The notes under the pieces: model-generated
Database searches by the model: none
Told to the model about the DNA's origin: nothing
What the model saw: only the letters and a program-made list of their open reading frames with translations
From: Thermoplasmata archaeon
GTDB taxonomy: Archaea; Thermoplasmatota; Thermoplasmata; Lutacidiplasmatales; UBA184
DNA length: 64,000 nt
Direction: 5' to 3'
NCBI GenBank assembly: GCA_022750435.1
Contig: JAKIVS010000006.1
Location: forward strand, 36,732 to 100,731
Position numbers and translations under genes: made by a program
Shown here: piece by piece, positions 44,659 through 55,391 of the stretch
Numbering within the stretch: the first letter of the stretch is position 1
Layout of the letters: the number at the start of each line of letters is the position of its first letter

Positions 44659-46389
44659 CTAGGCGGCGAGGGCCGTCGGCGGACGGAGCGGGGGACGAAT
44701 CTCCTCGCCCGCCGACTCGGTCGGTCCGCCGGTCGACGCCACGCGGAGGTCGACGACCTCCTCGTAGGTCTCGAGGAGCCGGCGAGACGCCTTCGCGCCG
44801 ACCCATCCGGCCGACTCCAATTCACGCAGGCCGGCGGCGAGCCGCATCGCGAAGTCGGGGTCCGTGAGGACGTCGGCCCCCCGCACGATTTCGAACGCGG
44901 CGTGGGCGAGCCAGGGGTCGGTGGCGAGCCCGTCCTCGAGCGTGCGGCGCAGAGCCCCGTCGAACTGGGCGGTCCGTGGCTCGAGCGGCGAGACGGCGCC
45001 GCCGAACCACCCCTTCAGCAGCGCGCCGAACCGGGGGTTCGCGCCGACCTGCATCGGCGGGAAGACGACCATGCGCACCCCCTTGGGGCCGCGCAGCATC
45101 CCCATCCACAGCGGGAACCAGAGGACCTTGACGGGCGGAAGGTCGCGGGTCGGGAGGAAGTACTGCGCGAGGAGCTCGCGCTGGCGCTCGCGGGCGGCGA
45201 GATGGCCGGAGAGGGCGTCGACGACGTCGGTCCCGACCCCGGAGAGCTCGTCGCGGAACAGCTCACGACCGGCGAGGAGCTCCGCCTCCTGGTGCTCGAC
45301 CGCGGTCACGCGGCCCGTGAGGGCGACGACGGCGGCGCGTTCGCGTTCGTGGAGGGCCTCCAAGCGCTCCAGGGACTCGCGGATCGCCCGGTGGGCGTCC
45401 CGGACCTCGGCGGCGGCCCGCCGGCCCCGCGCCAGGTGGGGGGCGGCGTCGCCGCGGCGGTGGGACGTGCGTTCGGCGAGGACGTCGGCGGTCCTCTGCT
45501 CGATGTTCCCCTTGGCGACGCCGGCCTGGCCGACGCGCACGACCTCGGATTCCCGCCGGACCTCGGCTTGGACGGAGGCGTGGAACCGGTCGGACTCCCG
45601 GGTGAGCTCGGCGCGCGCCTTCTCGAGGCGGCTCTCCCCGTCGTGACGGCGTTCGTCGGTCTCGTCGTCCACGGCGAGCAGGGCACCGCCGAGCCGCTCG
45701 GCGACCTTCGCCTTCAGGCTCTCGAGCCGCTGGAGGTCGAGGGAGAAGCGCGTCATCCACCGCCCCATCTGCTCCACGGCCGCGCCGTACCACTCGTAAT
45801 CGTGGCGCGCGGGCAGGAAACCCGGGTGCGCGGACTGGGGAGGTCGGCTGAACTCGGCCTGGCCGATCACGTCGAACAGGAGGGGAGGCTCGACCGGCAG
45901 GAACCCCTCGACGGTGAGCACCTCCGCGCCCGGGTCCTCCGCGAAGCTCGGGCGAAGGCCGGTCAGCGTCCGGAGCAGCTCCGGCGGGGTCGCCGGGGCG
46001 TCGAGCAGGGCATGGATTGGGGTCAGGTCCGGCAGGATCGACTGACGGAAGGTGCGACGCCAGACTCCGGTGCCGTCGAAGATGGCGATCCGGCCGGCGG
46101 TCGGCGCCTTCTGGACCACGAGCGGCCAGTAGACGTTCGCCACCGCTTCGACCGTTTCGCTGGGGCCGAGCCGGAGCCGTTGGGCGAGGCCGGACCGCTC
46201 GGCCTCGACGCCGGCCAGGATCGTGGCGAGCACGACCGCCTCGGGGAGTTCCCTCCGCTCGCCGGCGTCGTCGACGCCCATCGCGAATCCGAGGGTGACC
46301 TCGCTCGGCTCCTCCTGGGGGGCACGCGGGGGGGCGATGCGCGGGAGGGGGGACCGGGCGCTTCGGCTCACCGGTGGAACGACAGACAT
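44659..46389 (-). CDS. orphan 576-aa protein with central coiled coil and duplicated YWPL/LWFPLW modules
   Basis: The leaderless ATG 46389 lies about 26 nt downstream of a minus-strand TTTATA. The middle 200 aa or so is Arg/Glu/Ala-rich heptad-like sequence. I recognise no family. Confidence 0.6.
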   Translation of the reverse strand: MSVVPPVSRSARSPLPRIAPPRAPQEEPSEVTLGFAMGVDDAGERRELPEAVVLATILAGVEAERSGLAQRLRLGPSETVEAVANVYWPLVVQKAPTAGRIAIFDGTGVWRRTFRQSILPDLTPIHALLDAPATPPELLRTLTGLRPSFAEDPGAEVLTVEGFLPVEPPLLFDVIGQAEFSRPPQSAHPGFLPARHDYEWYGAAVEQMGRWMTRFSLDLQRLESLKAKVAERLGGALLAVDDETDERRHDGESRLEKARAELTRESDRFHASVQAEVRRESEVVRVGQAGVAKGNIEQRTADVLAERTSHRRGDAAPHLARGRRAAAEVRDAHRAIRESLERLEALHERERAAVVALTGRVTAVEHQEAELLAGRELFRDELSGVGTDVVDALSGHLAARERQRELLAQYFLPTRDLPPVKVLWFPLWMGMLRGPKGVRMVVFPPMQVGANPRFGALLKGWFGGAVSPLEPRTAQFDGALRRTLEDGLATDPWLAHAAFEIVRGADVLTDPDFAMRLAAGLRELESAGWVGAKASRRLLETYEEVVDLRVASTGGPTESAGEEIRPPLRPPTALAA

Positions 46390-46410
46390 CGGAGGAACGA
46401 GGTTTCTCAA

Positions 46411-48278: not shown

Positions 48279-48830
48279 CTAGGTCGAGTGCGCCCGTCGA
48301 CGGAAATCCTCACGGACCGTGAGGGCCGACGGTGCTTCAGCAAGTCGGCGGATCTCGTCGCCCGCCTGGAGGATGCCGGTGGCGCGAACACCGAGGTAGA
48401 ACCCGGACCGCTCGTTCGCGAGCATCCGGTCGATCATGTCGTCGCGCTGGAACCGGGCATTGAGCTTGACGCACGGGAGGCGGGGGCGGGTCACGACGAG
48501 CTCGGCGCTCCCGATCCCCAGCACGTCGCCGATGCGGAGGTCGTCCTCCAAGACACCCTCCACGGTCAGGTTCTCCCCGAAGACGCCGACGGGGAGCGGC
48601 ACGTCGCCGAGCTCTTCCTTCCAGAATGGGTAGTGTTCCCGGGGATAGGCGTACACCGACTTCTGCGGTCCGCCGTGGCCCCGATGGTCGGCGACGTCGT
48701 CGCCCACGAGGCTCTCCGCTCCGACCTCCACGGGTCCCTTGACCGGACGCTTGCGGATCGCGCTCCGCAGCGTCGTGGTCCCGTGCACGAGCGGCTCCGG
48801 CCGGCCGAGGTTCACCGAGACGACCTTCAT
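48279..48830 (-). CDS. MOSC domain protein (YiiM-like)
   Basis: MKVVSVNLGRP...GDDVADHRGHGGPQKSVYAYP..., GENLTVEG and RPRLPCVKLN are MOSC signatures. ATGA overlap with the upstream GNAT gene. Confidence 0.8.
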   Translation of the reverse strand: MKVVSVNLGRPEPLVHGTTTLRSAIRKRPVKGPVEVGAESLVGDDVADHRGHGGPQKSVYAYPREHYPFWKEELGDVPLPVGVFGENLTVEGVLEDDLRIGDVLGIGSAELVVTRPRLPCVKLNARFQRDDMIDRMLANERSGFYLGVRATGILQAGDEIRRLAEAPSALTVREDFRRRAHST

Positions 48831-49390
48831 CGTCGGGTCCCCTTCGGGCGGGGCGCCTCGGCGGCTCGACGTCGTGCGTCGCGGCGGCGTTGCACGGGGT
48901 CGAGCCACAGCCGCATCTCGGTGGTCGACCCGAACCCGAGCCGTTCGTACACGCCGCGGCCCATCGCCGAGGCATGGAGGGAGATCCGGGCGTAGCCGAG
49001 CTCCTTCGCCAGGTCGACGGCCCGGCGAACCGCGGTGGTCGCGACGCCGAGACCCCGGGCGTCGGGCCGGGTGTAGACCGAGAGGATGTACGGGATCTTC
49101 AGGTCGTCAAAGCCCGGACGGGGCTGGCCGGGCTGGAACCAGAGCGCGCCGCTGCCGACCGGGGTTCCGAGCGGATGCTCGACGACCCAGGCCACGACGT
49201 CGGCGCTTCGCAGGCGCGGGCGCAGCCAACGGGCGTACGCCAGAGCGTGGCGGGCGATGGCGCGCGCCGGTCGGTCGCCCATCTCGGTGAACATGGCGAC
49301 CCGGTGCGCCACGAGAAGGTTGATGTCCGCCTCGGTCGCCCGACGCACCGCGAGGCGGACGCGGCGGCGACGGCTCGGTTCGCGAGGCAT
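48827..49390 (-). CDS. GNAT family N-acetyltransferase
   Basis: ..ILSVYTRPDARGLGVATTAVRRAVDLAKELGY.RISLHAS..GRGVYERLGF contains the acetyl-CoA binding motif. The track ORF is over-extended, and ATG 49390 gives a 187-aa GNAT. Confidence 0.75.
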   Translation of the reverse strand: MPREPSRRRRVRLAVRRATEADINLLVAHRVAMFTEMGDRPARAIARHALAYARWLRPRLRSADVVAWVVEHPLGTPVGSGALWFQPGQPRPGFDDLKIPYILSVYTRPDARGLGVATTAVRRAVDLAKELGYARISLHASAMGRGVYERLGFGSTTEMRLWLDPVQRRRDARRRAAEAPRPKGTRR

Positions 49391-49431
49391 CCGAGCGCGA
49401 GACGTCCCGGAGCCCATAACGCCGGGCCCGG

Positions 49432-49926
49432 TCAGTCCAGTTGGCGGCGGAACCGCTCCCGGACCTCGCGGGCGAGTCCGACCAGCCGCTGCGCGTTCGT
49501 CTCGTTGGCCGACTCGACCGCGAGCAGGATCCTCGGCGTGCCGACCCGCAGGACCACGATCCGGCTCGGGTCGCGCTTCGCCACGGGAGCGGCGGTCTTT
49601 CGGCGGGGCTTCGTCCGGTCGCGGAAGTCCATCCGGATGAGGATCCGGCCGAGCGGGTCGGACGGGCCGAGCGATTGTCGGTCCTCGACGGTGCGCCGCC
49701 ACTGGCGAAGTCCCCACGCGCCGCGGGGCCGCTCCACCTCTTCCCACGGACCGAGGACGAGGTCCTGGTAGACGGCGTACTCCTGCGTGCCGCGGAACGC
49801 GAGGTCGATGTAGCCGAGCAGGAACCCGTAGTCGACCGTCCGGTGGTCGACTCCGGTGTAGGGGACGGAAACCTCGGGCGCCGCCGACGCGTCCAGCGGC
49901 GGACTCCGGTCGCCGCCCACCGTCAC
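49432..49926 (-). CDS. orphan 164-aa protein translationally coupled to AIM24 paralog 3
   Basis: GTG 49926 overlaps the AIM24-3 stop (GTGA). It lies in the frame of track ORF 49432..50592, and I recognise no family. Confidence 0.45.
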   Translation of the reverse strand: MTVGGDRSPPLDASAAPEVSVPYTGVDHRTVDYGFLLGYIDLAFRGTQEYAVYQDLVLGPWEEVERPRGAWGLRQWRRTVEDRQSLGPSDPLGRILIRMDFRDRTKPRRKTAAPVAKRDPSRIVVLRVGTPRILLAVESANETNAQRLVGLAREVRERFRRQLD

Positions 49927-50582
49927 CCGGGGCCGATGGGAGGGTGCTTCGACGGGTCGATCGTCTGGAGGTAGATGTCGCCCGGCCCGTCGACCCGGAG
50001 CGCCTCGAAGCTCATCGCGTGCCCGACGAGCCCGCCGCCGAGCGGTTGGTTGTAGGCGCGGACGTTGACGCTGGCGTCCTTCATCACGAGGGCGCCGTGG
50101 TCGATGTCCATCGCCTCGCCCTGGGCGAGGGTGAACTTCAGGATGTTCCCGTGGCCCTGGAACGCGAAGGTGCCGGGGCCGGTGAGCCGGTCCATCCAGA
50201 ACCCGATCATCCGTCCGATCCGTCCGGTCCCCTGGACGTAGAAGGTGTCGTACTGGATCCCGTTCGTGGCGAGCAGCAGGGAATGCTCGGCGACGTCGAC
50301 GGCTTTCCCTGCCTCGAGCTCGACGACGCGGGTCTCGCCCGGTCGGAACCGGCTGAACGCCACGTAGCCCGGGCCGGTGTATTCGTGGAGCGTGAACGGG
50401 AGTCCGCCGACGAGGGTGCGCTTCAGGGTGCCGAACACGCCGCCCTGCGTGAGCCACCGGTAGCCGAATCCGATCGTCGGGTCCGAATAGACCATCAGGC
50501 CCCCCTCGCAGAAGATCTGCTCGCCGGGGCCGAGGGTCGCGAGCGCGATGGGGATGTAGTCGCCCTTGATGTCGACCTGCAT
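49923..50582 (-). CDS. AIM24/DUF124 (TIGR00266) family protein, paralog 3
   Basis: ..LATLGPGEQIFCEGGLMVY...GGVFGTLKRTLVGGLPFTLHEYTGPGYVAFS..., RLTGPGTFAFQGHGNILKFTLAQGEAMDIDHGALV and DGPGDIYLQT form the canonical AIM24 pattern. Confidence 0.75.
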   Translation of the reverse strand: MQVDIKGDYIPIALATLGPGEQIFCEGGLMVYSDPTIGFGYRWLTQGGVFGTLKRTLVGGLPFTLHEYTGPGYVAFSRFRPGETRVVELEAGKAVDVAEHSLLLATNGIQYDTFYVQGTGRIGRMIGFWMDRLTGPGTFAFQGHGNILKFTLAQGEAMDIDHGALVMKDASVNVRAYNQPLGGGLVGHAMSFEALRVDGPGDIYLQTIDPSKHPPIGPG

Positions 50583-50588
50583 TGCCCC

Positions 50589-51251
50589 TCACGCCCCGCT
50601 GTGGACGAGGACCCGGCCGGGTCCGGTGAGGTCGAGGACGGGCAGCGGCACTCCGCCGGTGGAGGCCATCGACGGCGACGCGAGCCAGTCGACCCGGACC
50701 GACACCGTGTTCGCGGCGGCGAGCAGCGCCGCCACGTTCGTCCGCATCCGTTCGCCCGGTTGGAGCTGGAAGGAGAGGATGTTGCCGTACGACTGGAAGA
50801 CAATCGTTCCCGGGCCGGTCATCTCGTCGGCGAACAGGTACGTCACCGGCCGCTGGCCGTTCGCGTCCGGGTACGGGGCCGGAAACTGCGCGAGCACCAT
50901 CGGGTAGTACCGCGCCGACTCCTCGAAGCAGATCAGGTGGCCGTCCCGCAGCCGGAGCGTTTCCCCCGGGGCGAGCGGAAGGACGCGGACCTCCCCGCCC
51001 TTGTCGCGCGAGAACGAGACGTGGCCGGGCCCTTCGAACTCGGCGAAGAAGTAGTTCTCGTCGCTGTCGCCCATCGCGTGCATCCCCATCAGGTGGGTCC
51101 GACTGACGCCGAGGGACTTCATCGTCCGGCGATGGATCTGCACGGGCTGCTCCTTGTAGAGCATCAATCCGTGCGCCGCGAGGACCTTCTCGCCGGGCCG
51201 CAGGGTGACGAGGACCGCCGGTGCGATCCCTCCGACCGAGTCGGCCTGCAC
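50589..51251 (-). CDS. AIM24/DUF124 family protein, paralog 2 (divergent)
   Basis: ..VLVTLRPGEKVLAAHGLMLY..., FEGPGHVSFS, MTGPGTIVFQSYGNILSFQLQPGERM and LTGPGRVLVHS. It keeps the same scaffold but has divergent loops. Confidence 0.65.
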   Translation of the reverse strand: MQADSVGGIAPAVLVTLRPGEKVLAAHGLMLYKEQPVQIHRRTMKSLGVSRTHLMGMHAMGDSDENYFFAEFEGPGHVSFSRDKGGEVRVLPLAPGETLRLRDGHLICFEESARYYPMVLAQFPAPYPDANGQRPVTYLFADEMTGPGTIVFQSYGNILSFQLQPGERMRTNVAALLAAANTVSVRVDWLASPSMASTGGVPLPVLDLTGPGRVLVHSGA

Positions 51252-51264
51252 CGTGGTCGCCCCC

Positions 51265-51453
51265 CTACGTCACCGGGCGTTCGTCGACCGCGAGGGAGTA
51301 CGCGCCGCCGCAGTACTCGCATTTCGCGTAGCCGGACTGGATGTTCTTCGCCGTGATCCGCGCTCCGCACCCCTTGCAGCTCATGTCCTGCAAGGAGGCC
51401 CGGCTGACGGTCACTTCGGTCCGCTTCTTGACGAACTCTTCCGGAATCGGCAT
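51265..51453 (-). CDS. 62-aa zinc-ribbon protein
   Basis: ..CKGCGARITAKNIQSGYAKCEYCGG.. is a CxxC-x16-CxxC ribbon. It sits between AIM24 paralogs 1 and 2 with gaps of 18 and 13 nt. Confidence 0.55.
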   Translation of the reverse strand: MPIPEEFVKKRTEVTVSRASLQDMSCKGCGARITAKNIQSGYAKCEYCGGAYSLAVDERPVT

Positions 51454-51471
51454 GCGTTCTCCGAACCTCCC

Positions 51472-52119
51472 TCAGAAGTGGTGCGACTTCGGGTCGATGC
51501 TCTGGATGGCGATCTGGCCGGGCCCGATGAGCTCGAGCACCTCGTACGCCTCGAGCTTCCCGAGCAGGCCTCCGCCGAACGGGAGGTTCACGGTCTTCGC
51601 CTCCACGCTCCCGTCCTTCCACAGCATCCCGCCCATGTCGACGTGGATCATCTCCCGCGGCGCGAGGGTCATCGAGAGGATGTTCCCGTAGCCGTGGACC
51701 GCGACCTTCCCCGGTCCGGTGAGCCGGTCGAGCCAGAGCCCGGACATCCGTCCCGGGCGGTGGGTTCCCTTGACGTACTCCATTCCGTACCGGATCCGGG
51801 CATCCGCGCAGAGCAACGACCCCTCGGCGACGTCGATCGTCTGGTTCGGGGCGAGCTCCAGGATGCGGACCTCGCCGGTACCGTCCCGGGACATCCCCAC
51901 GTGCCCGGGCCCGGTGAATTCGGTCAGGAAGAACGGAATCCCGCCCACCGTCGTTCGTTCGAGCGTCTGGAGGAGACCGCCGCCCTGGACCGTCTTGCGT
52001 GAGACCCCGACGGGTGGGTCCTTGAACAGCATGATGCCGTGCTCACCGTAGACCGCCTCGTTGGCGCCCAGGGTCACGAGAACGGTCGGCACCAGGCCGG
52101 GCAGGCACTCGAGTTCCAC
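51472..52119 (-). CDS. AIM24/DUF124 family protein, paralog 1
   Basis: ..VLVTLGANEAVYGEHGIMLF...GGLLQTLERTTVGGIPFFLTEFTGPGHVGMS..., RLTGPGKVAVHGYGNILSMTL and IGPGQIAIQS. It is closely related to paralog 3. Confidence 0.75.
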   Translation of the reverse strand: MELECLPGLVPTVLVTLGANEAVYGEHGIMLFKDPPVGVSRKTVQGGGLLQTLERTTVGGIPFFLTEFTGPGHVGMSRDGTGEVRILELAPNQTIDVAEGSLLCADARIRYGMEYVKGTHRPGRMSGLWLDRLTGPGKVAVHGYGNILSMTLAPREMIHVDMGGMLWKDGSVEAKTVNLPFGGGLLGKLEAYEVLELIGPGQIAIQSIDPKSHHF

Positions 52120-52147
52120 GGTCCTCGCCGTTGCGACAGCGGTCGTA

Positions 52148-53023
52148 CTATGTGACCGTTTCTTTGGGGCGAGATGTGCGGGGGCTCTTGGGACGCTCCG
52201 GCGTTCCTCCGGCCCCCAACAGGTCCATGACGCCGGTCCCGAGCCACTGCCCGCCGTCCACCGCGAGCACCTGGCCGGTGATGTAGGACGCGGACGGGCC
52301 GGCGAGGAAGCTGACCGCGTCCGCGATCTCCTCGACGGTCCCGAACCGCCCCAGGGGGATCCCCCGTGTCACGGCCGCGACCAGCCTCGGGCTCCTCCAG
52401 AGCCGCTCGTCAGTTCCCGCGGTCCGGACTGGACCGGGCGCCACCGCGTTCACCCGGATGCCATGCGGTGCCCACTCGACCGCCAGAGCCCGGGTGAGCG
52501 CGAGCACCCCCGCCTTCGCCGCAGCCGAGTGGGCCGTGCCGGGTCCCGCCATCCAGGCGTAGGACGCCACGATGTTGACGATCGAGCTTCCGCGCCGCTT
52601 GCGCAACAGCGGGAACGCGGCGCGCGAAACGTAGAACGTCCCGTCGAGGACGATGCCGACGACGGCCCGCCAGCCGTTCGGGGAGATCGACTCCGCCGGA
52701 GCAATGAAATTGCCGGCGGCGTTGTTCACGACGAGGTCGAGCCGTCCGAAGCGCGCCCGGATTCGTTCGACCAGGCGGTCGGCCTGCTCCGGGTCCCGAA
52801 CGTCGGTGGGCACCGTCTCGACGGCGGCCCCGCTTCCCGCCAGCGCCGCCGCTCCGGCGGCCAGGTGGACCGGCGATCGGCTGGCCAGCACCAAGTCGTG
52901 TCCATCGCGGGCGAGGCGCTGCGCGATGGCAAGTCCGATCCCCGTCCCACCGCCGGTGACGAGGGCAACCGGGCGGGGAACGGGAGGCTCCGGGGGGCTC
53001 GATCGGTGCGACCTTCTTACCAT
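52148..53023 (-). CDS. SDR family oxidoreductase (dienoyl/enoyl-CoA-reductase-like)
   Basis: VALVTGGGTGIGLAIA (TGxxxGxG), NNAAGNF and the catalytic S...YAWMAGPGTAHSAAAKAG context. ATG 53023 removes an over-extended N-terminus. Confidence 0.85.
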   Translation of the reverse strand: MVRRSHRSSPPEPPVPRPVALVTGGGTGIGLAIAQRLARDGHDLVLASRSPVHLAAGAAALAGSGAAVETVPTDVRDPEQADRLVERIRARFGRLDLVVNNAAGNFIAPAESISPNGWRAVVGIVLDGTFYVSRAAFPLLRKRRGSSIVNIVASYAWMAGPGTAHSAAAKAGVLALTRALAVEWAPHGIRVNAVAPGPVRTAGTDERLWRSPRLVAAVTRGIPLGRFGTVEEIADAVSFLAGPSASYITGQVLAVDGGQWLGTGVMDLLGAGGTPERPKSPRTSRPKETVT

Positions 53024-53222: not shown

Positions 53223-55391
53223 GTGCGTCGAAGCGGCTCCCCCATCCGGCCCTTCGCAACCGTCGCCTTGCTCTGGGTCTCGCTGGCGTTCGTCGTTCCC
53301 GGAGCTGTCTCGTTGCCGCCGACGGCGCACGGAGACACCGGCGGTTCCGGTACGACTCTCCTCGCGGCACCGCACCGGTCGGCTCCGATGAGCTCCTCCG
53401 GCGCGTTCCTGGCGCTCCATCCGCCGGCCCCCCCGCGCCGCCTGACCCACCCGGCCTTGGGCGGGGGCGACATCATCAACGTCAACAACTCCTACACCCG
53501 CGAGCCGGCCCCGATGGGGGTCACCGATTTCGGGGTCACCCCGAACTGGACCGGCTACGCCTACGCGACCCCGGAGTTCCAGGCGAGCGCGACCATCCAC
53601 TCGTTGGTCGCCTCGTCGTCCGGTTCGGCCGGGACCGACATGGGATTCCAGCTCAATGTCGAAGATGTCGTGGCGGGCGGGGGCTCGACCTACGTGTTCT
53701 GGATCCAGGACGTCGCGTTCTTCGACACCTCGGTGAATCAGATGACCTGGGAGGACAACGTCTGGAACCTCTCCGCGGGCACGGGGGCGCTCCCGGCGAA
53801 CAGCCTCGCCGGGAACGGCACAATCAACAGCGGGACGTACTACGCCGACGTCGCTTCGGCGTACGGTTCGCCCGCGACCCTGACCGAGCCGACCACCATC
53901 TACGCCCGGGTCATCGCGAGCAACGCCTCCGGGGAGCCCCATGTCGGGTTCGAGTACAACGACGGATACGGCTGGATCATCTTCGACAACGTCACCTTCC
54001 CGTTCCTGACGAACGGCGTGAACCGCGGATTCCTCGTGAGCGGCTACCAGTACACACCGCTCGGCGGTTACCTGGACGCCGAATGGGACATGGGCGGCCC
54101 CTGCTGCGGCCTGTCGCAGACCCTTGGCCGCTCCGACGTAGACATGAGCCTCTCGTACTGGAATGGGCACAATCTGCAGGCGGTCCGGTCCGCGTTCGAC
54201 TACGGGGCGAACACAGGGGAATCGATGGGGAACGTGGCGGACCAGTTCGGCACCTCCAACTCGACCGGGGCGGTGTTCGGACAGGCGGTCAACGGCAGCG
54301 GCAGCCTCGGACCCTTGTACGGCTCCTCGAATGTGGCGACGTTGCGGGTGTCGACCGGCAGCCAGAGTTCGGGCGTCCTCCAACTGAACGGCGTGGACGC
54401 CCCGTACGGGGGTGGGGTCGCGAACTTCACGATCGCTCCCGGGGCGTACGAGGTCAACTTGACGGCGAACGGCAGCTACGAGGCCGGCACCAACGTCACG
54501 CTCTCGGCGGGCGAGTTCCTCACCATCTCGATCACGCCGATCCCCCGCTTCGCCCTCCAGTTCATCGCCGTCGGACTCCCGCCCGGGACCCCGTGGTCGG
54601 TGAACGTCTCCGGCGAGCTTCTCTCGGGTCGGTCGGAGGTCGAGGGACTGTTCCTCCGCAACGGGAGCTACACCTACGTTCTCGGACCCGTCCCGGGCTA
54701 CTCCCCCACGTCCTACGGCGGGTCGGTGGACGTCAACGGGACCACGCGCAATCTCACGATCCCCTGGACCCAGTTCCTGTTCGTGGCGGAGTTCGTCGCC
54801 GAGAACGACCCCGGCGGGGTGGCCTGGAACGTCTCGATCGGGGGTGGTCCGCCGGTCGCGACCACCGGGGACACGATCCGGGTCGACCTTCCGAACGGCT
54901 CGTACACCTACTCCGTCGGGGCCCCCTCCAGCATCGCGGTCTCACCGGCGAGCGGCCCCGTCAACGTCACCGGGGGCAACGCGCTGGTGGACCTGGGATT
55001 CTCCGTCGCGCCCGGTACCCTCGCCGGCACGGTGTCCCCGGTCCTCGCCGCCGTGTCCGTGGACGGGGCGTCGGTCACGGTGTCGAACGGTGCGTTCTCG
55101 GTTCTGCTGCCCGCGGGCGTCCACCAGGTGGTCGCCTCGCTGACGGGGTATCGCACCGTGGACCGGACCGTGACGCTCGCCGCCGGGGCGACCGTCACGA
55201 TCCAGTTCGTCCTCAACGCGACGGGCATGCTGCCGGGCACCGGGGATGGGGGCGGAGGGACGAACCCCTGGTCGCTCGGCGGGACGGACACGCTGCTTGC
55301 CCTCGGCGCGGTGGGCGCGATCGTCGTCGTCACGGCGGTCCTCCTGGTCGCTCGGCGAAGGCCGCCGACGACGACGCCGAATTCCCCCTAG
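53223..55391 (+). CDS. thermopsin-like (peptidase A5) surface protein with C-terminal beta-sandwich modules and TM anchor
   Basis: Signal peptide VRRSGSPIRPFATVALLWVSLAFVVPGAVSL. YTREPAPMGVTDFGV, GFQLNV and YVFWIQDVAFFDT resemble thermopsin family motifs. Repeated GLPPGTPWSVNVSG...NGSYTY..GPVPGY-type modules follow. C-terminal LLALGAVGAIVVVTAVLLVA + RRR. The start is uncertain, with GTG 53175 as the alternative. Confidence 0.6.
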   Translation: MRRSGSPIRPFATVALLWVSLAFVVPGAVSLPPTAHGDTGGSGTTLLAAPHRSAPMSSSGAFLALHPPAPPRRLTHPALGGGDIINVNNSYTREPAPMGVTDFGVTPNWTGYAYATPEFQASATIHSLVASSSGSAGTDMGFQLNVEDVVAGGGSTYVFWIQDVAFFDTSVNQMTWEDNVWNLSAGTGALPANSLAGNGTINSGTYYADVASAYGSPATLTEPTTIYARVIASNASGEPHVGFEYNDGYGWIIFDNVTFPFLTNGVNRGFLVSGYQYTPLGGYLDAEWDMGGPCCGLSQTLGRSDVDMSLSYWNGHNLQAVRSAFDYGANTGESMGNVADQFGTSNSTGAVFGQAVNGSGSLGPLYGSSNVATLRVSTGSQSSGVLQLNGVDAPYGGGVANFTIAPGAYEVNLTANGSYEAGTNVTLSAGEFLTISITPIPRFALQFIAVGLPPGTPWSVNVSGELLSGRSEVEGLFLRNGSYTYVLGPVPGYSPTSYGGSVDVNGTTRNLTIPWTQFLFVAEFVAENDPGGVAWNVSIGGGPPVATTGDTIRVDLPNGSYTYSVGAPSSIAVSPASGPVNVTGGNALVDLGFSVAPGTLAGTVSPVLAAVSVDGASVTVSNGAFSVLLPAGVHQVVASLTGYRTVDRTVTLAAGATVTIQFVLNATGMLPGTGDGGGGTNPWSLGGTDTLLALGAVGAIVVVTAVLLVARRRPPTTTPNSP

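Follow-up and report, generated by a model that had tools for sequence, protein, structure and literature searches.

On the minus strand of a 64,000-nucleotide stretch of contig JAKIVS010000006.1 (positions 1-64000, referred to below as the window), derived from an uncultured soil archaeon, three paralogs of the AIM24/DUF124 family and a small zinc-ribbon protein are encoded side by side in the order AIM24-1 / zinc ribbon / AIM24-2 / AIM24-3 (A1, Zn, A2 and A3), and we state with high confidence that these four genes constitute the unit, a self-contained four-gene operon. The interpretation that we favour on balance is that the products of this operon form an asymmetric hetero-oligomer of AIM24 chains and a zinc-ribbon subunit, which would serve as a non-enzymatic scaffold. 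AIM24/DUF124 is among the most widespread families without a known prokaryotic function: in the archaea it counts among the most widespread uncharacterised families (arCOG01907; PMC6393860), and the function of every bacterial member is stated to be unknown (PMC6677890). The cassette is a variant arrangement in this known, functionally dark family and amounts to a natural dissection of it. With three fixed subunits, one of them degenerate, and a separate partner of 62 residues, complex formation, stoichiometry and binding surface become directly testable, making the cassette a tractable entry point to AIM24 function.

Reading along the minus strand, A1 (51472..52119; 215 aa, GTG to TGA) is followed after 18 nt by the ribbon gene (51265..51453; 62 aa, ATG to TAG), after a further 13 nt by A2 (50589..51251; 220 aa) and after 6 nt by A3 (49923..50582; 219 aa). 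The gap ahead of the ribbon gene contains a Shine-Dalgarno-like GGGAGG, and the A1 stop and the ribbon gene share a reading frame, the linker on read-through being six residues. The coordinates, starts, stops, gaps and overlaps of the minus-strand genes were all verified from the listing of open reading frames (ORFs) and by direct reading of the sequence, and an earlier interpretation of this DNA made from its letters alone (the sequence-only reading) had them right in each case, including the distance of 28 nt to the SDR gene upstream. Its domain calls, three times AIM24 together with GNAT, MOSC and SDR, are likewise borne out by Pfam, which returns no match for the remaining gene, an orphan downstream of A3. 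The window has a G+C content of about 70% and the proteins homologous to its own are recorded as belonging to Thermoplasmata archaea, the closest named genome being that of Candidatus Lutacidiplasma silvani (AIM24-1 85% identical), a genus of the order Lutacidiplasmatales, Thermoplasmatota. Besides the members of the cassette, no AIM24 or ribbon gene was found in the 64-kb window.

A four-gene cassette conserved in related Thermoplasmata

Related loci, 47 in all, were collected through exact-protein lookups (7 loci) and through a scan of species-representative genomes (40 loci), and nine proteins of the window were mapped onto them by tblastn; an exact-sequence lookup with the window's own A2 matched no record. 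In every complete locus the genes for A1, the ribbon, A2 and A3 are tightly spaced, and they occur one-to-one in about 40 species-level Thermoplasmata genomes, with the ribbon gene found in 40 of some 42 complete loci. The order A1-Zn-A2-A3 holds in about 30 loci, and a single subclade (L035-L040, L042, L044) has Zn-A1-A2-A3 instead.

What surrounds the cassette differs from lineage to lineage. All-against-all clustering of the ORFs in the 47 loci yielded no family outside the cassette that was present in more than ten loci, and in the distant lineages the flanks are made up of unrelated housekeeping genes, such as those for Tsr3 and FtsZ, for EF-G with ribosomal proteins and biotin ligase, and for thiolase, or else for RpoH, the small subunit of PolD, PurL, DnaG, GH15, PhzF and acetyl-CoA synthetase. 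Extending the survey to 80 loci of other origin, described below, no recurrent functional neighbour of AIM24 genes was found in the 47 Thermoplasmata loci or in these 80, the only synteny being lineage-local and of the housekeeping kind. Inheritance of the cassette is vertical, it is present essentially as a single copy, and its surroundings are core housekeeping regions, not variable islands. The sequence-only reading had named a lack of conserved gene order as a ground for refutation; judged by this, the order stands for the four-gene core, as seen in the 47 loci, and fails for the set extended by the orphan, GNAT, MOSC and SDR genes.

The start of the operon is marked by an element that stands out in such G+C-rich DNA. 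When a promoter-like box is defined as an octamer with at least six A/T among its eight positions, lying 16-70 nt upstream of a gene, 35 of 39 non-redundant loci have one ahead of the gene that opens the cassette, as against 20% of internal cassette genes and 16% of random windows. In the window this AT-rich element, AAAGAAA...CATAGTA on the minus strand (52146..52165), reads AAAGAAACGGTCACATAGTA at 52165-52146, lies about 30 nt upstream of the GTG of A1 and overlaps the stop codon of the SDR gene. Its CATAGTA core is kept upstream of A1 in L001, L009-L012, L015 and L047, of which L015 and L047 have no SDR gene upstream. The box would fit an archaeal TATA-type promoter giving rise to a leaderless or short-leader transcript. 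A scan for sigma-70 promoters and intrinsic terminators, a type of scan that is not applicable to archaea, gave nothing useful.

Three AIM24 paralogs, one of them degenerate

All three paralogs pass the PF01987 cutoff of 25.7 bits by a wide margin (A1 113.4, A2 86.0 and A3 113.6 bits), and their matches extend from about positions 2-9 to position 204 of the 205 positions of the profile. The equivalog TIGR00266, under which the sequence-only reading had placed them, does not apply, since with 45.7, 20.5 and 34.6 bits for A1, A2 and A3, respectively, all fall below its cutoff of 96.6 bits; by these profile scores the three are members of PF01987 belonging to an AIM24 subfamily apart from the TIGR00266 equivalogs. 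The family is represented structurally by only two structural-genomics entries, 1YOX (PA3696), an entry of six chains, and 1PG6 (SpyM3_0169). A profile of 11 paralogs matches both over some 200 residues (1YOX_A, E 5.5e-13; 1PG6_A, E 6e-13), the profile being needed for this, as a single-sequence search of the PDB with A1 returned nothing relevant and neither of the two entries.

A neighbour-joining tree built from 42 loci (120 AIM24 sequences) sorts the paralogs into three pure orthologous clades (A1, n=39; A2, n=40; A3, n=41), with A1 and A3 as sister groups. Because the clades are pure, the triplication must predate the divergence of the lineages, all three copies having been retained since. 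Mean identity within the clades is 64% for A1 and 65.5% for A3, as compared to 50% for A2, which evolves fastest and falls to a minimum of 25%; between clades, A1 and A3 are about 46% identical, and A2 is about 30% identical to either of them (A2 and A1 of the window about 35%).

The conserved residues are distributed in a manner that sets A2 apart. The GPG motif occurs three times in all paralogs, invariant and at intervals of about 65 residues (A1 residues 70-72, 135-137 and 199-201), a spacing that fits the three TRAP-like beta-sandwich repeats of which an AIM24 chain has been described to consist (PMC6677890; TRAP, trp RNA-binding attenuation protein). A2 keeps all three GPG motifs and lacks six family-invariant residues, which in A1 numbering are R55 (A or S in A2), G60 (E or D), G127 (Y), R132 (E or Q), G163 (variable) and Q206 (H). 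The same six are kept in A1, in A3, in outgroup AIM24 proteins, in 40 single-copy AIM24s and in 30 members of tandem pairs. Given the loss of these invariant residues, A2 would be a degenerate subunit in which the fold is preserved, a pattern typical of obligate hetero-oligomers. The sequence-only reading had already observed that A1 and A3 are close to one another and that A2 retains only the scaffold, and both observations stand. Membrane segments were found in none of the archaeal AIM24 paralogs, and the proteins appear soluble.

As a separate observation, the A2 ortholog of one lineage (L002:8001-8717) carries near its C-terminus a low-complexity insertion rich in Q, N, M, G and F, GGFQMNSPFAGGMQMGGFQPNN; judging from this ortholog, large loop insertions are tolerated by A2.

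The zinc-ribbon protein

The protein encoded between A1 and A2 is 58-65 residues long across the loci, with the arrangement CxxC...CxxC and a mean identity of 65%. Among 31 cluster representatives the invariant columns comprise the four cysteines, C26, C29, C45 and C48, and 19 others. Pfam gives no match above cutoff for the protein, the sub-cutoff similarities being weak ones to the TFIIB and DNA polymerase epsilon ribbons. A model computed with AlphaFold2 (AF2) from an alignment places short strands in residues 24-55 at a predicted local distance difference test score (pLDDT) of 68-80, which is moderate, and leaves residues 1-22 unstructured. The two CxxC knuckles taken together with the modelled strands identify the protein as a zinc ribbon, to which no specific ribbon family could be assigned.

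Conservation is highest where the model shows no structure. The N-terminal 21 residues are almost invariant, containing the peptide MPIPEEFVKKRTEVT(I/V)S(R/K)A within the segment MP(I/V)PEEF.KKR.EVT.S.A.L, and they remain nearly so while the identity of A2 falls to 25-35%. Since the most conserved part of the protein is unstructured in isolation, it can be read as a docking peptide that would fold on a partner. In a search of 1.84 billion representative proteins with a profile hidden Markov model (HMM) of the ribbon protein, only three full-length clusters at 50% identity were recovered, the other hits matching the generic ribbon half; with full-length members so few, the family is confined to the lineage that bears the triplet. 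Ten longer proteins matching the ribbon half were checked as candidate AIM24 fusions, and none of them was an AIM24 protein.

It may be added that ribbon residues 1-21 (window 51390-51453, FVKKRTEVTISRA) loosely resemble the motif L(K/E)RT.VGG.PF of A1 and A3, which in A1 occupies residues ~49-60 (window 51940-51975) and is precisely the segment lost by A2. The likeness of FVKKRTEVTISRA to this motif could reflect the donation of a strand in trans, or it could be due to chance.

Ribbons fused to AIM24 in other organisms

Screening metagenomes with a broad AIM24 alignment produced the 80 further loci referred to above (L052-L131). All but one of them belong to a different AIM24 subfamily (79 loci; 33-40% identity to A1), the exception, L052, being a short contig of the Thermoplasmata type with 65% identity. 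In this sample, which represents one AIM24 subfamily on many short contigs such that the counts are indicative only, a single AIM24 gene is present at 65 loci, a tandem pair at 15 and a triplet at none. An N-terminal CxxC...CxxC zinc ribbon, joined in frame through a low-complexity linker rich in P, Q and G, was found on 53 of 95 AIM24 ORFs (for example L125:3716-4711, L058:3707-4705 and L064:3785-5503; also L048:3707-4582). Of seven fusion proteins scanned with Pfam, four (L125, L058, L072 and L088) score above the cutoffs for both Zn_Ribbon_1 and AIM24, and in several tandem pairs (L064, L077, L095) each copy has a ribbon of its own. A Chlorohelix plasmid AIM24 likewise has an N-terminus with CxxC...CxC, similar to the fused ribbons; plasmid-borne AIM24 genes are solitary and their neighbours unrelated. 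In the literature searched, AIM24 and a zinc ribbon are not mentioned together in any paper.

These fusions lend Rosetta-stone support to the view that ribbon and AIM24 would act as one physical unit, and, being present in over half of the other AIM24 genes sampled, they generalise the partnership of ribbon and AIM24.

Genes adjoining the cassette

Downstream of A3 the orphan gene (49432..49926, minus strand, 164 aa) overlaps the A3 stop in the sequence GTGA, and is followed by the gene for a GNAT acetyltransferase (48827..49417; PF00583, 48 bits), separated from it by 41 nt if translation starts at 49390 or by 14 nt if it starts at the alternative ATG at 49417. The gene for a MOSC-domain protein (48279..48830; PF03473, 110.6 bits against a cutoff of 22.7) then overlaps that for GNAT in ATGA. 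On the upstream side, also on the minus strand, lies the gene for an SDR oxidoreductase (52148..53023; 291 aa; PF13561, 209 bits). The sequence-only reading had assembled the orphan, GNAT and MOSC genes, and possibly SDR, with the AIM24 genes into one system and had assigned to it a role in small-molecule modification or detoxification; neither proposal survives comparison with the related loci.

Synteny of the SDR, orphan, GNAT and MOSC genes and a convergent alpha/beta-hydrolase gene is limited to the closest clade (L001, L008-L012, L046; A1 at least 84% identical), about 35 other loci keeping the core alone. Among the relatives MOSC occurs in L001, L008 and L011 and is missing from L009, L010, L012 and L046, that is from four of the seven loci of the closest clade; it also scores well below the cutoff of the 6-hydroxyaminopurine reductase equivalog (YcbX/YiiM-type NF008577; 101.7 against 294 bits). 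GNAT is adjacent in the closest clade only, being distant or absent elsewhere, and in Candidatus Lutacidiplasma silvani (L009:8692-11130) about 2.4 kb are inserted between it and the orphan. The SDR gene is adjacent in L001, L009, L010 and L012, and not in L011 or in any more distant locus. As the box described above is conserved between SDR and A1, and is present even where no SDR gene lies upstream, we argue that SDR is a separate unit, contrary to its suggested membership. On these comparisons GNAT, MOSC and SDR are best regarded as local neighbours outside the conserved unit, and a misleading lead is removed in that GNAT and MOSC fall outside the AIM24 system.

The orphan is a different case. 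Its orthologs come from 8 loci, all in the closest clade (identity 49-71%, with 62 columns invariant), no relatives in Pfam or the PDB were detected even with a profile of the eight sequences, and a single-sequence AF2 model (pLDDT 43) was unusable. A 155-aa ORF downstream of A3 in L005 shows no relationship to the orphan and looks spurious. A box precedes the orphan in one of seven loci and MOSC in none, which makes read-through into the downstream genes plausible, in the closest clade only, and the orphan is probably co-transcribed with the cassette. It would be a clade-specific fifth gene, a lineage-specific addition to the cassette.

Two further genes of the window may be mentioned. A thermopsin-family protein (PF05317, 197 bits; window 53523-55391, plus strand) has a PEGA domain and a C-terminal hydrophobic anchor and is rich in N-x-S/T sites; its ORF opens at 52653, overlapping the SDR gene on the other strand, so that the true start is uncertain. 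A protein of 583 aa (44659-46410, minus strand) matches neither Pfam nor PADLOC, and a 629-aa gene at the syntenic position in L001, also without a Pfam match, indicates a conserved unknown of the lineage.

A model of the assembly and its alternatives

Taking the paralogs and the ribbon together, we regard it as probable, from the comparative evidence, that A1, A2, A3 and the ribbon protein form a complex. In our model the three AIM24 chains would assemble 1:1:1 into an asymmetric ring of nine repeats, to which A1 and A3 would contribute the family-invariant polar residues and A2 its fold only, breaking the symmetry of the ring. The zinc-ribbon protein would be the fourth subunit, its unstructured N-terminal 21 residues docking on the ring and the ribbon itself projecting from it as a handle for a client, and in many bacteria the same partnership would be hard-wired, each AIM24 chain bearing a ribbon fused to its N-terminus. 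The complex as a whole might then be constitutive and act without enzymatic activity as a scaffold or adaptor, in analogy to those eukaryotic AIM24s that stabilise MICOS and the Hrd1 complex; this functional part of the model, for which we also take into account that no catalytic motifs or informative neighbours were found, is put forward tentatively. The hetero-oligomer with a zinc-binding adaptor envisaged in the sequence-only reading, which we too infer, gains from the one-to-one co-conservation of the genes, the three pure clades, the degeneration of A2 and the ribbon fusions elsewhere.

A number of observations weigh against this model. The HMM of the free ribbon has no significant match to the fused ribbons, the likeness being weak and at the level of CxxCGA, and since free and fused ribbons are not demonstrably homologous, the Rosetta-stone argument holds at the level of the domain class only. 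Two loci depart from the complete set, L041 being without A1 and L043 without the ribbon, both on contigs of metagenome-assembled genomes (MAGs). The proposed function, for its part, is drawn from analogy with distant eukaryotic homologs; neither a membrane-binding segment nor a catalytic motif was found in the paralogs, and their surroundings (47 and 80 loci) held no conserved neighbour that would be informative.

The two departing loci have peculiarities of their own. L041 has the arrangement Zn-A2-A3 with no A1 within 11.8 kb, and L043 belongs to the same MAG, SubAcS15-120, as L047, such that this MAG has two cassettes, of which that of L047 includes the ribbon and that of L043 does not. 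These patterns could be real variants or artefacts of binning or assembly.

A bolder form of the model, which we consider doubtful, makes the heterotrimer obligate and has the KR..GG strand lost by A2 complemented in trans by the ribbon peptide FVKKRTEVTISRA; the ribbon would then be an ancestral and near-universal partner of AIM24, existing as a fusion in many bacteria and as a separate protein in these archaea, with other partners perhaps taking its place in mitochondria and in the endoplasmic reticulum of plants. At the opposite end stands the view that the three AIM24s are independent tandem duplicates forming homo-oligomers of their own with diverged specificity, the ribbon being an unrelated gene caught between them. 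This would agree with single-copy AIM24 genes being the norm elsewhere (at 65 of the 80 metagenomic loci, and as solitary genes on plasmids), with both solved structures being of single gene products and with the occasional absence of one member, as in L041 and L043. We nevertheless judge it unlikely, since all four genes and their order are retained one-to-one down to identities of 25-45%, the residues lost in A2 are kept without exception by the other AIM24s examined, a loss hard to reconcile with autonomy, and the ribbon family is found only where the triplet exists, ribbons being fused to AIM24 elsewhere. The unit might conversely be larger than the cassette, namely a single system of seven to eight genes in which the AIM24 assembly would cooperate with GNAT and MOSC, and perhaps SDR, in modifying small molecules or in detoxification. 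In the window and its closest relatives the genes follow one another on a single strand, either overlapping or separated by short gaps, and the absence of a box ahead of the orphan (at most loci) and of MOSC makes read-through plausible in that clade; however, the synteny ends there and is incomplete even within it (MOSC missing in four loci, GNAT displaced in L009, SDR absent in L011), some 35 distant loci keep the cassette beside unrelated housekeeping genes, and the conserved box separates SDR from A1. Comparative genomics has largely refuted this extended system, and we hold it to be very unlikely.

Two other alternatives accept an assembly and differ as to its purpose. In one, the nine-repeat ring would be a TRAP-like regulator that binds a metabolite or a repeated RNA motif, with the ribbon contacting nucleic acid, and would control translation or transcription. 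Each AIM24 repeat does resemble TRAP (PMC6677890), nucleic acids are frequent ligands of zinc ribbons, the zinc-ribbon protein has its weak Pfam similarities to the ribbons of TFIIB and DNA polymerase epsilon, and the proteins are soluble. Yet these Pfam matches are all below cutoff, the literature searched contains no report of RNA binding by any AIM24, the eukaryotic members that have been characterised work by way of protein-protein contacts (PMC6677890, PMC3975624), and neither an Rfam RNA nor a repeated motif was found near the operon; indeed, the whole 64-kb window contains no tRNA gene and no Rfam family at the gathering threshold. A regulator of this kind seems to us quite unlikely. 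The other, a module for stress or defence, whether of the Ter type against tellurite or metal stress or an anti-phage system, would take its cue from AIM24 domains that a secondary source (PMC5822837, citing Anantharaman et al. 2012) places beside TerD in group I ter gene neighbourhoods. Neither in the flanks of the window nor in any of the 47 loci was TerD or another ter gene found, the PADLOC models matched none of the nine proteins of the locus, and the cassette, inherited vertically and present essentially once, is in a core housekeeping setting, all of which makes such a module highly improbable.

Comparison with known AIM24 proteins and other systems

The paralogs of the cassette share with the AIM24/DUF124 family (PF01987) at large scores well above the cutoff, the profile match to 1YOX and 1PG6 and the three GPG motifs. 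They differ in their organisation, as typical members are encoded by solitary genes and are modelled as homotrimers, whereas the cassette has three fixed paralogs, one of them degenerate, and a free ribbon. Matches to 'DUF124' in a paper on the type VI secretion system turned out to refer to DUF1240.

Among eukaryotes some members have been characterised. The plant proteins PAWH1/2, modelled as a homotrimer whose ring offers a flat face for interaction, bind and stabilise a partner in the Hrd1 complex (PMC6677890), and yeast Aim24 has been linked to MICOS (PMC3975624). Common to these and the archaeal proteins is the AIM24 domain. PAWH1/2 attach to the soluble N-terminal domain of their partner, with a stabilised complex as the outcome (PMC6677890, PMC3975624, PMC10203443), and the analogy with a scaffold is founded on this. 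The eukaryotic AIM24s are membrane-associated, the plant B-type having predicted C-terminal transmembrane helices, in contrast to the archaeal paralogs, which have none, and for the eukaryotic proteins neither a heteromeric triplet nor a ribbon partner has been reported.

The bacterial fusions of Zn_Ribbon_1 (PF13240) with PF01987 have in common with the cassette the partnership of ribbon and AIM24 and the occurrence of tandem AIM24 paralogs, in their case 37-56% identical. In the fusions each AIM24 chain has its own N-terminal ribbon and both tandem copies keep R55 and G60, whereas in the cassette one free ribbon is provided for three chains and is located C-terminal to the conserved peptide.

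With respect to its logic, the arrangement recalls the heterotrimeric ring of the Crenarchaeota, PCNA1-2-3, in which the homo-oligomeric ring of most lineages is replaced by three co-retained paralogs forming an asymmetric ring with distinct partner-binding faces. The fold and function of the AIM24 proteins are unrelated to those of PCNA, and the AIM24 heterotrimer is in our case a proposal made from the genes; if it does form, the cassette would follow the same logic, with three co-retained chains in place of one and the ribbon protein as their dedicated partner.

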